Positions 1,716 through 63,838 of a stretch of DNA of 64,000 bases are shown in pieces. Source of the stretch: Eledone cirrhosa (taxonomy: Eukaryota); assembly GCA_964016885.1 (NCBI GenBank), contig OZ024740.1:85312001-85376000 (forward strand). The letters run 5' to 3'. A program made the translations under genes and the position numbers. Positions within the stretch are counted from its first letter, which is position 1, and the number at the start of each line of letters is the position of its first letter. Below the pieces are notes generated by a model, which ran no database searches, was not told where the DNA came from, and was given only the letters and a program-made list of their open reading frames with translations.

Positions 1716-2316
1716 TAATTCTTTCAGGTAAAAACAAATAACGAAACGAAATTAAATTTCGTTTCGTTTGTAACTCACTTTTGTATGACTGACGCTTAAA
1801 CAATTAAGTTAAAGATGTACATCCATATATGTATACTGAAATACTAGTATGTATATGAATACACACACGTATACATATGTAGATGTACCAAGTTTCGTTA
1901 TTTGTTTTTATCGTCTCCGTTGAACCGGTACTTACTCACACTCTGTGCGGATTAGTCTGCCCACTACTAATTTTCATAGAAAAAGCATATAACGATATGT
2001 GCTTTTACGATTCTCTAGAGAGGCCGGAAGATAGGTAAATATTGCTGATGAGTTGTAACAACAACGAAACTAGTTCAATATTCCTTGTCTGGCTTTCTGG
2101 AGAATAGAGGAAAGGTGTTTCCTCAAAAACCAGTATGACTCTAAAAACCGGTTTGTCTGTGTGTTTACATACAGAATAGCTGGCCACTCACAGTAAAGTG
2201 ACCAGTAAAAAAACTTGGTACATCTACATATGTATACGTGTGTGTATTCATATACATACTAGTATTTCAGTATACATATATGGATGTACATCTTTAACTT
2301 AATTCTTTCAGGTAAA
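1716..2316. mobile_element. Non-coding HHR-bearing fold-back element (retrozyme-like / non-autonomous PLE) with 17-bp TSD
   Basis: TAATTCTTTCAGGTAAA at 1716-1732 and 2300-2316; 1802-1893 is the inverted copy of 2213-2304; 1730-1747 is the inverted copy of 1892-1909; HHR at 2038-2082. Confidence 0.85.
2038..2082 (+). ncRNA. Minimal type-I hammerhead ribozyme
   Basis: Stem I AATATTG/CAATATT; CTGATGA; stem II GTTG-TAACAA-CAAC; GAAA; palindromic stem III CTAG; cleavage triplet GTT. Confidence 0.88.
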
Positions 2317-2602
2317 TTTGTTGCTTTTTTTTATGAACTTAACTAACATAGAGACAAGGTTAGAAACTTTGTAGAAAGGGAAAATCGTTATATCGATCTC
2401 AGTAGTTGATTGCGTACTTTATTTTATTTTCTCCGGAAAGACGAAAGGTAAAATTAATCTGGGCGGGATAGGTACTAAGAACGTAAAAAGCCATAACTTA
2501 ACATCGCAAAGTATTTTGTCCGACGCTCTAACGATTTTGCCAATTTACACTAATAAATTAAGTTCTCTGTAATTAATGCTTTCTCGATGGCTTAATTCTA
2601 GA

Positions 2603-3139
2603 TCAGGGTTTCCCAACCCTTGCGATTTCAACTGTTGGGTGGGTGATGAGCAACTGAACAGAAAATAGTGTTTCTACTTTTGGCACAAGGCCAGCGATTA
2701 TCCTAGCGCATTACTGGTACTTTATTTTATCGACCTCGTAAGGATGAAAGGCAAATTTAACCTCGGCAGATTTGAACTCAGAACGCAAAGGGCCATAACT
2801 ATGCTGCAAAGCATGGTATCTGACGCTCTACCGATACTGCCAAATCACCGCCCTACTGAACAGAAAATAGTGAGCAATTGGAAGTGTTGGTGGGCGATAT
2901 ATGATTTTGAGTATTTAAAAGGTTTTTCAACATATTCTACCAGAAAAAATAACCAAAGGTGATATGCAAAGAAACCCGTATAAAAAGAATAAACAGGAAG
3001 CTAAATAGGAATAACAAACCAGTAACAAACTTTTACCAAACATTTTTAATGTGCTTTTCAATATTTACTATACAGGTGGGCGGTGGAACATTTTCCATGC
3101 GAAAGTGGGCAATGATGCAAAACAGGTTGGGAACCCTTG
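2603..3139. mobile_element. hAT (Charlie/MER5-like) MITE with a nested SINE
   Basis: TIRs CAGGGTTTCCCAACC / GGTTGGGAACCCTTG; imperfect 8-bp flanks TTCTAGAT/TCCGAGAT. Confidence 0.65.
2671..2853 (-). mobile_element. SINE family A with 18-bp TSD
   Basis: Flanked by ACTGAACAGAAAATAGTG on both sides. Confidence 0.88.
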
Positions 3140-3696
3140 TCCGAGATTAAACTAGATTAACAAAAAAATATCGGTTGTAAATCGAATCAGCAAAATTAAA
3201 AACAGTACACACTAAAATATGTTTCAAATAGTCGTTATGTTTTACTGTGCGAATATAGATATATTACGAAATGGCCTGACTGTTAACGTAATGTAAACAT
3301 GTATACATGTTTCGTCCAAACAGCAATAAAATACATGCTAAGTCGTTTTTGTTAATTTTTGTTTTTCTTCGGAAATGGTACGGGAACACATATTTATTAC
3401 ACAGGTTTGGAAGAGAAATATTGTAATTATTTTGTTTGTTTACAATGATTGCGCAATTGTTTAATTCAGAACCGTTAGCCTTATGTAGTTGAATACATTT
3501 TAACTAATGTGTCTGCAATTAAAGTTTCTGGTAACTTTCACAGTCATGACTAAATTATAAATGATTAAGTTATAGTGTTGGACACTATCAAGACAGATCC
3601 GCTTGGCACTGAGCAACACCCATTGGAATTTTACCAAAATCACAGATCAATGTCATTCAAAAGAGTGTTTTTGAAATAGTTTCAATTATTAGACAA

Positions 3697-30925: not shown

Positions 30926-31377
30926 ATTTTATATATATATATATACACACACACATATGTATATGTATATTTATGTATATATTTGTGTCTGTGTGTGTAT
31001 AAGAACAATGTTGTCAGAACTGACATCTATGCAATGCAATCTTCAATTGTCTGCTATGAGAACCACCCAGTTACGTTGCCTTCTTATGGGCTCCATCTCC
31101 CTTTCATCTCTTGGATCAGATATTTTCCTGTCAGATATTTCCATTGCTGCGTGCACTGATGAGGTCCTTCCCACCACACACACACGCGCGCAGCCACCCT
31201 TCACACATATACTCAGAGCCTAGTGTGCGCTTTACTGTTCTTTAATACAGACCACCCTCTATAACACTTAGGATTTTCCTGATGACGTCACCATCACAAA
31301 ATAATAACATAATAAATGTGAATACAGCAGTATATATTTAATAGTTATAATGACTTTACCACAAGGTACTACCGCCC

Positions 31378-31379
<2 letters not shown>

Positions 31380-31416
<37 letters not shown>

Positions 31417-31429
31417 TATGTACATATAT

Positions 31430-31464
<35 letters not shown>

Positions 31465-31628
31465 TATATACATATATATATACATATATATATACATATA
31501 TATATACATATATATATACATATATATATACATATATATATACATATATATATACATATATATATACATATATATATATACATATATATACATATATATA
31601 TACATATATATATATACATATATATACA

Positions 31629-31670
<42 letters not shown>

Positions 31671-31748
31671 CATATATATACATATACATATATATATATA
31701 TACATATATATATACATATACATATATATATATATACATATATATACA

Positions 31749-31786
<38 letters not shown>

Positions 31787-31791
31787 CATAT

Positions 31792-31846
<55 letters not shown>

Positions 31847-31969
31847 ATATATATATACATAATATATATATATATACATATACATACATATATATATATA
31901 CATATACATACATATATATATATACATATACATACATATATACATATACATATACATACATATATACAT

Positions 31970-32008
<39 letters not shown>

Positions 32009-32393
32009 CATACATATATATATATATACATATATATATATACATATACATACATATATATATATATATATACATATACATACATATACATATATATATA
32101 TACATATACATACATATACATATATATATATACATATACATACATATACATATATATATATACATATACATACATATACATACATATATATATATATATA
32201 TACATATACATACATATACATACATATATATATATATATATACATATACATACATATATATATATATACATACATATATATATATATACATACATATATA
32301 TATATATATATACATACATATATATATATATACATACACATACATGTATATATATATATATATATACATACATATATATATACATATACATAC

Positions 32394-32427
<34 letters not shown>

Positions 32428-32602
32428 ATATATATACATATATATACATATACATATATATATATATATATATACATATACATACATATATATATATATA
32501 TATATACATATACATACATATATATATATATATACATACATACATATATATATATATTCATATACATACATATATATATATATATATACATATACATACA
32601 TA

Positions 32603-32638
<36 letters not shown>

Positions 32639-32747
32639 CATATACATACATATACATACATATATATATATACATATACATACATATACATACATATATA
32701 TATATATATATACATATACATACATATATATATATACATATATATAC

Positions 32748-32800
<53 letters not shown>

Positions 32801-32935
32801 CATATACATATATATATATTTATATATATATATATATATACACACATATATATATATATACATATACATATACATATACATATATTTATATATACACATT
32901 TATATATATATATACACACACATATATACATATAG
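31380..32935. repeat. About 1.55-kb (TA)n/(TACA)n compound microsatellite
   Basis: Direct reading; local 10-bp and 30-bp higher-order units. Confidence 0.95.
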
Positions 32936-33449
32936 GTGTGTGTTTGTGCGTGTGTTATTCATAAATAATGTTACTTTTCTATGACTAAGTTGTATTTTAA
33001 ATACACCATTTTTCAGATGTTTGTGATTCGGGTAAAAGTGTTGCTCTCCAAAGACGGTATTTAGTGTTCTCTGGCAACGTGTTGCACATACATATGGAAT
33101 TTTCTCTCGAAACAGTAACAGCTCAGCCGTTGGGTCCTAACAGTCTACTATATTTACACTCTACTATCCCAAGTATCGAGTTCTCTACTGAACAATGGTC
33201 TTACTAGTTTAAACTGGTAAAATCCTGATCTATCTACCCATTAGTTTTCAACCTATTTGTATTTTTCATTGTTATGGTATAAGTATGGGCACTACCTTCG
33301 GTCGTTTTTCTTGATGTCACACTTTACTATCTTTTGTGTTTACTCTGGACGATAATGTATTAACTTCTCGCTTCATTGAGTGCTTTGTGACTGCCCCTCA
33401 AACAACTCGATTAGTAACTGCTATATGGCAGCTACAACTTTGATTCATG

Positions 33450-62386: not shown

Positions 62387-62595
<209 letters not shown>

Positions 62596-62596
62596 T

Positions 62597-63838
62597 TATA
62601 ATTTTGAAAAAATGAAACGAAATTTCATTTCTCACTCTTAGTACGGCTGTTACTTAAATATAAGTATGTATACGTACATACATATATGTATACAGACGTA
62701 CAGTAGTATGTATATATATATACATACATGCACACATATATATATGTACGTATGGATTCATCGAACATTTATTATAATGCTCGGTGTGTTTGTAAACAAA
62801 CATCCCGAATTAAGCCGTACAGTGTCTAGCAACCATCGTTGCCCTTTTGTTCAACACTGACAAAGGAACGATGTACTAGTTTCAAGCTTATTAGCTATCG
62901 TCAGCAACGTATACCTTCCTGCCAGATGATTGAACGTCTGAAAGTATATACTTTCCTTATGCATATTAACGGCTGGGCAGCCTAATTTGCATATCGAGTG
63001 AGTTAATCGGCCAGGGTACCGAAAACGATAAACGGAAAAAATGAAACGAAATTTCATTTCTCACTCTTAGTACGGCTGTTACTTAAATATAAGTATGTAT
63101 ACGTACATACATATATGTATAAAGACGTACAGTAGTATGTATATATATATACAGACGATAGCTAATAAGCTTGAAACTAGTACAGCGTTCCTTTGTCAGG
63201 GTTGAACAAATGAGCAACGATGGTTGCTAGACACTGTACGGCTTAATTCGGGATGTTTGTTTACAAACACACCGAGCATTATAATAAATGTTCGATGAAT
63301 CCATACGTACATATATATATATGTGTGCATGTATGTATATATATATACATACTACTGTACGTCTGTATATATATATGTATGTACGTATACATACTTATAT
63401 TTAAGTAACAGCCGTACTAAGAGTGAGAAATGAAATTTCGTTTCATTTTTTCGGTTTATCGTTTTCGGTACCCCGGCCGATTAACTCACTCGATATGCAA
63501 ATTAGCCTGCTCAGCCGTTAATATGCATAAGGAAAGTATATACTTTCAGACGTTCATTCATCTGGCAGGAAGGTATACGTTGCTGACGATAGCTAATAAG
63601 CTTGAAACTAGTACAGCGTTCCTTTGTCAGGGTTGAACAAATGAGCAACGATGGTTGCTAGACACTGTACGGCTTAATTCGTGATGTTTGTTTACAAACA
63701 CACCGAGCATTATAATAAATGTTCGGTGAATCCATACGTACATATATATATGTGTGCATGTATGTATATATATATACATACTACTGTATGTCTGTATACA
63801 TATATGTATGTACGTATACATACTTATATATATAATTT
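62597..63838. mobile_element. Retrozyme-like tandem + inverted element, about 430-nt monomer
   Basis: About 1.25 units on - (62605-63152) then about 1.55 units on + (63154-63829); HHRs at 62868-62910 (-), 63154-63188 (partial, +), 63577-63619 (+); TATAATTT on both flanks. Confidence 0.9.
63577..63619 (+). ncRNA. Minimal type-I hammerhead ribozyme
   Basis: ACGTTG-CTGACGA-T-AGCT AATA AGCT-T-GAAA-CTAG-TA-CAGCGT. Confidence 0.88.

Follow-up and report, generated by a model that had tools for sequence, protein, structure and literature searches.

Two-armed insertions of a hammerhead retrozyme in Eledone cirrhosa are probably primed from both ends of one staggered cut

Structure of the insertion

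The window of this study is a stretch of 64,000 nucleotides (nt) of Eledone cirrhosa DNA (GenBank assembly GCA_964016885.1, contig OZ024740.1, positions 85,312,001 to 85,376,000 of the forward strand). At 1716-2316 it contains a single young insertion of a hammerhead retrozyme that is non-coding and 468 nt long. In this insertion an antisense arm is followed head to head by a sense arm, and the whole is bracketed by a duplicated piece of the target (Table 1). With position 1 of the repeat unit, drawn as a circle, set at window position 1892, the antisense arm reads from circle 19 to 1 and then from 468 to 321; its outer end lies at circle ~19-20, a place that we call site A, and the sense arm ends on the outside at a second place, site B. 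The two arms share 92 nt (the reverse complement of 1802-1893 equals 2213-2304), and the outermost part of the antisense arm, the reverse complement of 1729-1747, is the start of the sense arm again (1892-1910; 19 nt, 100%). This agrees base for base with the original prediction, which had described a forward arm at 1892-2304 and an inverted copy at 1730-1893 with a ~92-nt repeat, a ~54-nt extension and a return to the start. In a BLAST comparison with a natural array unit, 1892-2311 matches in sense orientation at 99.3%, and all mismatches lie in the flank, past 2304.

The duplication and its microhomologies are present as had been claimed. The last 4 nt of the left copy (TAAA, 1729-1732) and the first 5 nt of the right copy (TAATT, 2300-2304) can be assigned to the element as well, and the chance that an exact 17-bp direct repeat brackets the element exactly is ~4^-17 for each pair of places. 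Five copies, that at 1716-2316 among them, lie in non-TA DNA, which makes the duplication of the present copy measurable; the position of this copy in unique DNA allows the duplication and all three joints to be read exactly. Upstream, 17 nt before the insertion, a 16-mer (CAAATCTCTATGACGC and variants) is repeated three times in tandem at 1652-1699, and a very high-copy stretch lies further upstream, at ~1526-1609, with a depth of ~86,000 in two sequencing runs, X1 and X2.

Table 1 Features of the window discussed in the text
Feature	Position	Strand	Basis or remark
Target duplication, left copy TAATTCTTTCAGGTAAA	1716..1732	.	17 bp; single copy in insert-free contig
Antisense arm	1729..1895	-	100% to natural array unit (BLAST)
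Perfect palindrome with 14-bp stem (AACGAAACGAAATT A AATTTCGTTTCGTT)	1740..1768	.	Between sites B and A on the unit; matches both strands
Closing segment, 54 nt (circle 414-467/468), unit end to unit start	1748..1801	-	Identical to inter-unit stretch of array L031
Arm-arm joint, 4-nt microhomology GTTT in both arms	1892..1895	.	BLAST against natural unit
Sense arm, circle 1-413	1892..2304	+	Outer end at site B (circle ~413)
Type I hammerhead	2027..2098	+	Rfam HH9, 37.7 bits, E 8e-8; covariation; 141 copies
Long imperfect TA-rich hairpin, circle 327-398, directly upstream of site B	2218..2289	+	Fold; same sequence at 1817-1888 (antisense arm)
Target duplication, right copy TAATTCTTTCAGGTAAA	2300..2316	.	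17/17 identical to left copy
Second retrozyme family, copy with unit of ~430 nt	62606..63836	.	Beside (TA)n/(TG)n tract; BLAST against family-1 unit

An insert-free form of the site exists. A 398-nt contig in each of X1 and X2, which carry the same species label, joins 1553-1715 to 2300-2534 without a mismatch; it skips 584 nt and retains one copy of the 17-mer, these 17 nt fitting either side. Only one place in the assembly matches the right flank at 100% (all others reach at most 81%), and the contig is therefore allelic and not a paralogue. Each of the two runs has ~17 million contigs with 1.4 Gb of contig letters and a depth of 5-9 on the flanks, and for these reasons we take both as genomic. 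The duplication, the junction microhomology and the insert-free allele support target-primed insertion, as originally proposed, and the insert-free allele also suggests present-day activity of the family.

Two further observations concern the reads. Summed over the contigs of X1 and X2, the depth across the retrozyme (bins 1736-2281) is 1e5-6e5 against 5-9 on the unique flanks, a figure which is not a copy number and which hints at far more retrozyme copies in the reads than in the assembly. Words of the retrozyme, not of its flanks, also occur in runs X4-X20, which bear at least 15 other coded organism labels and include one wastewater metagenome; contigs of X4 and X5 match the unit, across its closing joint as well, with 0-5 mismatches. 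These occurrences could stem from close relatives, from contamination or from transfer between species.

Genomic copies and their ends

A search of the species' own genome (3.0 Gb) with 1892-2304 as query gave 140 matches, grouped into 34 places, most of which are tandem arrays with a 468-nt period. The 33 places other than the window were fetched and mapped on the unit, and high-scoring segment pairs (HSPs) shorter than 40 nt were dropped (the 29-nt palindrome matches both strands). The 54-nt closing segment corresponds letter for letter to the stretch between units in array L031, from which it follows that the 467/468-nt unit is real: the closed circle of ~467 nt reconstructed from the two arms of the window copy has the same unit as the natural tandem arrays, and the closing segment runs directly into the unit start in L031 and the arrays. 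This supports the original proposal of a template whose end was joined to its start, be it a circular or a tandem RNA.

The unit has a GC content of 35.7% and is non-coding, with a longest open stretch of 65 amino acids (aa); no longer frame that could encode a reverse transcriptase (RT) or a GIY-YIG endonuclease exists in it, and the element is non-autonomous. Its fold reaches -151.9 kcal/mol (z = -9.7 against shuffles). Terminal repeats beyond the unit itself were not found, and a primer-binding site or polypurine tract was not formally searched for. The element is a retrozyme without long terminal repeats (LTRs) that shows a Penelope-type pattern of insertion, a class already known, which the original prediction had not named.

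The architecture of the window copy is the common one. At 25 of the 34 places there are two arms of at least 85 nt, and all 25 read antisense, then sense. At L031, L034, L049 and L064 a short second arm of ~10-35 nt was recognised by eye or by a 34-nt match, and L055 runs off the start of its contig. The outer ends are readable in 24 of the 25 two-armed loci (the remaining one, L035, adjoins an assembly gap), and a single arm order across these 24 has a probability of P = 6e-8. Breakpoints mapped on the circle, as the original prediction had suggested, fall into two fixed outer sites and variable inner joints. At 22 of the 24 loci one outer end lies at circle ~20 (site A, ..TTTGTTTTTAT) and the other at circle ~406-419 (site B, ..AACTTAATT or ..TTAATTGTTTA), the two being ~55-75 nt apart. 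Site A is on the left in 11 of these loci and site B in the other 11, and none has the same site at both ends (all 22 discordant, P = 2e-7). Each site lies just past a hairpin, at the end of a U/A-rich tail. Since the outer sites are the same in targets of unique sequence (the window, L043, L057 and L059), the element determines them, and pairing with TA repeats does not. By eye, L034, L043 and L064 have target duplications of ~8-11 bp.

The inner joints are scattered over the unit. Their overlap is usually 0-4 nt and amounts to 9-20 nt where there is a local palindrome; others contain 6-10 nt of filler. Inner ends recur at circle 1-4, 28, 49-59, 251-263 and 300, and the positions of the two inner ends of a locus show only a weak trend towards correlation. 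At L040, L053 and L057 both arms stop at the same position of the unit (438/437, 404/404 and 53/53), always at a local palindrome; such a shared stop in 3 of 25 two-armed loci is far above chance (P = 5e-4) and may reflect a shared break in one template. A different kind of joint occurs at L052 (G000 contig 3, 245517400-245521200), in which a foreign filler of 600 nt (2276-2875) that starts and finishes with the same ~65-nt stretch separates the arms.

Arms range from 85 to 8,216 nt, the longest (on contig 18) comprising 17.6 units. Variants relative to the reference are common to both arms of a locus, namely 23/23 at L054, 14/14 at L056, 10/10 at L051 and 12 of 12-14 at L048, and unit-specific changes within loci are few.

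The hammerhead ribozyme

The core of a type I hammerhead consists of CUGANGA and GAAA together with a cleavable UH site. In the window copy these are CTGATGA at 2045-2051, GAAA at 2066-2069 and T2074-T2075 ahead of helix I, which is formed by 2038-2044 and 2076-2082 with a distal part. Helix II (2052-2065) has 5 bp, and helix III (2069-2074) is minimal, with two invariant pairs around a 2-nt loop in the palindrome AACTAGTT. The predicted cut lies after T2075, between 2075 and 2076 (circle 184/185). In E-value mode Rfam assigns the region to Hammerhead_HH9 with a score under the cut-off of 52 bits, and at the gathering score it has no match anywhere in the 64-kb window. The earlier description of the ribozyme as perfect holds for the core, which is complete; with a helix III of only 2 bp the word is too strong. 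Given the short helix III, the ribozyme is predicted to require a dimer. In the text of the work on animal retrozymes, the amphibian hammerheads are reported to need a dimer (PMC7229834).

The copies of the ribozyme (full hammerhead regions counted, partial BLAST matches excluded) represent 14 distinct versions. The alignment used for covariation comprised 10 of these 14 family-1 versions and two copies of a second family described below; one version each was left out for hyper-editing, a core change, a 3-nt deletion and a distal change. Of all alignment cells 96.6% are paired, against 35-53% with the partners slid, and none of 500 shuffles reached the covariation score or the percentage paired. 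Changes on both sides occur in 8 pairs, and compensatory changes support helices I and II; a U-A to A-U change in helix II is found 13 times, at six or more loci. The 141 regions contain a single indel, the 3-nt deletion, which lies in helix II.

A second retrozyme family

The same anatomy recurs in a second family, of which the window holds one copy. Its antisense arm extends from 62606 to ~63156 and its sense arm from ~63154 to 63836, with the family's own site A on the left and its own site B on the right; a microsatellite at 62387-62600 adjoins it. The two families are similar (67-80% identity) only over circle 328-468 and 1-100, the region with both sites. A variant hammerhead was recognised by eye (CTGACGA ... 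GAAACTAGTA, with U.U at the base of helix II and a cut predicted after GAAACTAGTA), which Rfam did not find at E 0.01. Genome-wide there are 899 first-look candidates, from which 20 places were fetched and studied with the window copy after dropping HSPs below 88% identity or 30 nt. All 17 two-armed loci read antisense, then sense, and 11 of the 13 loci at which both ends were read have one site A (..CATTTTTTCCGTTTAT) and one site B (..CATACTTATATA). Four places are single-armed.

Target sites and Penelope-like elements

Retrozyme copies are associated with TA repeats: among the 32 family-1 loci whose flanks are readable, 27 have a tract of at least (TA)5 no more than 30 nt away, 23 of them on both sides, against a cover by such repeats of 7.7% in the 64-kb window and 3.1% in 48.5 kb taken from other loci. 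The window itself has a (TA)n/(CATATA)n microsatellite block of ~1.7 kb at 31232-32964; weak BLAST matches of the unit at 31975-32791 belong to this microsatellite and were rejected as copies. Matches to mir-297 and similar families, all far below the cut-off, are TA-rich hairpins or microsatellite and were rejected as microRNAs.

Penelope-like elements (PLEs) are abundant in the genome. The GIY-YIG domain has 10,594 first-look matches, and 150 of 150 scored over the cut-off. Three fetched PLE copies have open frames of 844-1096 aa, with YLDD followed by YIG ~270 residues on. At L077 (G000 contig 1, 145867500-145877499) a 938-aa frame contains RVT_1 and then a C-terminal GIY-YIG domain, and its look-alikes in the atlas are animal clusters of HTH_animal/DUF8422/GIY-YIG/RVT_1. 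This copy is a partial tandem with direct repeats 4,979 nt apart, and its 3' end runs directly into a (TA)n tract. No hammerhead was found near the 3' region of the L077 PLE at E <=0.05. The window has no PLE of its own (none of its 16 open frames has an RT or GIY-YIG domain) and no tRNA gene. A Penelope-like enzyme is probably the machinery of the retrozyme. Beside the 3' end of the PLE at L077, between two (TA)n tracts, lies an inverted-arm element (2340-3280) with arms of 231 nt that are 99% complementary and 200 nt between them.

A model of dual priming

Read from left to right, the insertion has the left target with its duplication, the antisense arm, the sense arm, and the duplication with the right target. 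This order means that both strands of a staggered cut with 3' overhangs acted as primers. We consider it fairly likely that the two-armed insertions result from reverse transcription primed at both 3' ends of a staggered cut, with one sense RNA, probably circular, as template and an enzyme that is probably Penelope-like.

The steps would be as follows. Array transcripts would be self-cleaved by their hammerheads, after which the monomers would be circularised by a host ligase, as adopted from the retrozyme literature. An endonuclease would make a staggered cut with 3' overhangs, of 17 nt at the window site. The top-strand end would pair at site A (..UUUGUUUUUAU, just past the 14-bp hairpin), by 4 nt in the window copy, and the bottom-strand end at site B (..AACUUAAUU, just past the long hairpin), by 5 nt. 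Both enzymes would then copy the same RNA towards its 5' side, possibly for more than one round. The antisense arm is predicted to be the top-strand cDNA, started from the 3' end of the left target, and the sense arm the bottom-strand cDNA, started from that of the right target; in the window these cDNAs would have measured 163-167 nt and 409-413 nt, and elsewhere arms reach up to 17.6 units. Finally, the 3' ends of the cDNAs would anneal by a few bases (GTTT in the window) and each would be completed on the other, leaving head-to-head arms within a duplicated target.

The coupled starts, the variants common to both arms and the three loci with the same arm stop suggest a single RNA molecule as the template of both enzymes. 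More tentatively, and with somewhat less than even confidence, we propose that the two reverse transcriptases start together on a single circular RNA, at fixed sites ~55-75 nt apart and from the opposite-strand primers of one cut, and proceed in the same direction until their cDNAs pair. The evidence argues that arrays are born at insertion as two opposed arms and have not grown later by unequal crossover.

A self-primed, snap-back hairpin was considered as the origin of the arms and rejected, as the arms are unequal and have different end sites. That the arms are an artefact of assembly, in which a chimeric palindromic long read folds a tandem repeat back on itself, is scarcely credible to us. 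Palindromic chimeras are a known long-read artefact, and the filled junctions are read here from the assembly. Such a chimera would not explain why an exact 17-bp duplication of a unique flank brackets the arms and an insert-free form is present in reads, nor why the arms are unequal and end at the two canonical sites of the family; moreover, 24 further places of family 1 and 17 of family 2, spread over many contigs, have the same architecture.

An event at the DNA level, in which extrachromosomal circular or fold-back satellite DNA was captured during break repair with no RNA stage, appears very unlikely to us, if less so than an artefact. (TA)n tracts are prone to breakage, repair by fold-back can yield inverted duplications, and the observations made here are of DNA. 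Against such an event stand the 17-bp duplication with its 3'-overhang geometry, the two fixed outer sites with one of each at 22/24 and 11/13 loci, the one-way arm order (25/25 and 17/17), a conserved and covarying ribozyme, and hallmarks that are the same as those of PLE retrotransposition. A strand-specific cluster of base changes also argues against it: at L052 the antisense arm has 44 A>G changes, counted on the sense strand, in its inner 322 nt (1950-2275) and none in its outer 700 nt, which, judged from the sequence, looks like ADAR-like editing of a structured RNA.

Circular or linear template

Dual priming itself is compatible with two forms of template, between which the original prediction made no choice. 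We favour a circular RNA, on balance. With a closed monomer circle as template, arms of as many as 17.6 identical units are accounted for, as are the near absence of differences between units in diverged lineages and selection for a ribozyme that would be destructive to a multi-unit template. The alternative, dual target-primed reverse transcription on linear multi-unit transcripts of the arrays that were cleaved in part or not at all and may have had their end at the T-run of site A, seems unlikely to us, and it is nevertheless the strongest of the rival explanations. Retrozyme arrays are transcribed as oligomers according to the text of PMC7229834, and the window copy requires a template of just 1.2 units.

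Several observations weigh against our interpretation, and the first three of them fit a linear or changing template better than a single circle. First, the edited stretch of L052 covers circle positions that the same arm had copied unedited one turn earlier, a passage from an unedited to a hyper-edited template. Secondly, at L031 (G000 contig 744, 11000-19500; 1765-2400) the variant changes along an arm of 10.8 units: the innermost 1.3 units differ from the other ~9.5 units, being ~5% diverged and having the compensatory pair in helix II, which reads as a template switch late in copying. Thirdly, L043 has a sense arm whose end coincides with the predicted hammerhead cut or lies no more than 4 nt away, yet this arm is 1.35 units long; it seems to start at the 3' end of a cleaved RNA, and the position of this end gives an indirect hint of self-cleavage. 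Fourthly, site A lies 2 nt after a run of five T and might thus mark the 3' end at which a linear transcript terminated. To account for L052, L031 and L043, either templates must have been switched or linear oligomers must have served as templates at least on occasion.

Other points concern the rule of the ends, the link to PLEs and the insert-free contig. Four family-1 places (L041, L045, L063 and L065) are single-armed and thus exceptions to this rule. L043 and L059 have one atypical end each: site A is combined with an end at circle 184 in the former (180-184 given 4 nt of microhomology), which is the predicted hammerhead cut, and with an end at circle 315 in the latter. Site A may be present on both sides of L034, whose second arm, of ~10 nt, was seen by eye, and in family 2 L095 and L099 combine site B with an end inside the hairpin. 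Sequence shared between retrozyme and PLE is restricted to TA-rich matches in the 16 stretches fetched (5 of them with long PLE frames), out of thousands more in the genome. Lastly, the kind of run is unrecorded for X1 and X2, and if they were RNA, the 584-nt skip could be drawn with GT..AG ends.

What nonetheless speaks against a linear template is the length and uniformity of the arms. Arms of up to 8,216 nt with all units identical would call for a very long transcript that stayed uncleaved in spite of an active-looking ribozyme in each unit. Loci with up to 23 fixed changes had almost no differences between units at birth, which fits repeated copying of a monomer better than the transcript of an aged array, and the maintenance of the hammerhead by selection is sensible only if a cleaved, monomeric RNA propagates. 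End-to-end jumps between linear monomers are likewise unlikely: the 141 hammerhead regions have a single indel, and the five arrays tabulated by unit have no irregularity at circle 184/185. A circular template remains our preferred reading, with linear oligomers or template switching in some loci.

Comparison with known systems

Retrozymes without LTRs have been described from animals, and the copying of a primed circular RNA into tandem cDNA has been proposed for them with PLEs as candidate machinery (Cervera & de la Pena 2020, PMC7229834). As far as the text of that work goes, they resemble the element of Eledone in being non-coding tandem repeats of low GC content, each unit with its type I hammerhead, in their target duplications of more than 4 bp and in the presence of PLEs in the same genome. 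The unit of 468 nt is longer than their RNAs of ~170-400 nt (PMC7229834) and falls within the range of 51-972 bp given in a recent preprint (Li, Clavereau & Pollet 2026, 10.64898/2026.07.22.740005), the text of which argues that retrozymes derive from terminal regions of PLEs. This preprint attributes the growth of arrays to local amplification and unequal crossover; the arrays studied here look as if they arose as two opposed arms from one template, with two fixed priming sites, and lie in (TA)n. The words 'inverted', 'microsatellite' and 'rolling' are absent from the text of PMC7229834, whose supplement (figure S9) may hold a related drawing, and in the text of the preprint 'inverted' occurs only in the reference list. 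Among the titles that a literature search for twin priming and Penelope returned are works on telomerase, human transposable elements and L1 priming, and the titles for rolling-circle reverse transcription, circular RNA and tandem were method and circular RNA papers. The footprint of coupled two-site priming is not found in the literature searched; the element class and the circle model are already in print.

The similarity to PLEs extends to the insertions themselves. PLE insertions are partial tandems that often include an inverted copy truncated at its 5' end; only one of their ends bears a 'tail', they are biased towards (TA)n, and the text of the same work calls their integration mechanism 'still undefined' (Craig, Yushenova, Rodriguez & Arkhipova 2021, PMC8557442). 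Partial tandems, a head-to-head inverted copy, an extension at one end and the (TA)n bias are all shared with the retrozyme. The PLE 'tail' is given there as 30-40 bp (PMC8557442), compared with ~55-75 nt for the stretch from B to A here. In contrast to PLEs, the retrozyme is protein-free, and both of its arms can be many units long.

A second comparison is with the twin priming of L1, said to have been described by Ostertag and Kazazian in 2001. It reportedly leaves an inverted 5' part and a direct 3' part within one target duplication, with microhomology at the inversion joint, and is said to use both 3' ends of the target as primers. The layout of the arms, the microhomology at their joint and, in our model, the priming from both target ends are common to the two systems. 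In contrast to L1, there is neither poly(A) nor a T-rich nick site here, the target being TAATTCTTTCAGGTAAA or (TA)n; the second primer starts at a fixed site and not anywhere, and the two starts are coupled, one of each. The arms of the retrozyme overlap and exceed one template length, which is impossible from a plain linear mRNA, and two arms are the rule (25/29 of the complete copies that are not single-armed) in contrast to a minority outcome in L1. Retrozyme insertion thus works like twin priming and is not mediated by L1.

The LTR retrozymes of plants (Cervera, Urbina & de la Pena 2016, PMC4918200) are reportedly, like the element of Eledone, non-autonomous and processed by hammerheads, with a circular RNA as the proposed intermediate of transposition. 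They are reported to differ in having type III hammerheads in LTRs, a primer-binding site, a polypurine tract, 4-bp duplications and Gypsy machinery, none of which applies to the present element.

Conclusions

The spread of animal retrozymes through circular RNAs and Penelope-like enzymes is a published hypothesis, which the clean footprints reported here turn into a specific and testable model. Roughly 50 sibling loci give its rule, namely that both cut ends prime, at different fixed sites and on the same template variant, and the resulting model of integration is concrete enough to name the RNA sites that should be mutated. If the family is active, new insertion events could be caught in population data. 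If the model is true, it would be the first sequence-level account of the tandem, inverted and 'tail' insertions of Penelope-like elements, and internal, structure-guided starts on an endless template would echo telomerase, the closest relative of the PLE reverse transcriptases.

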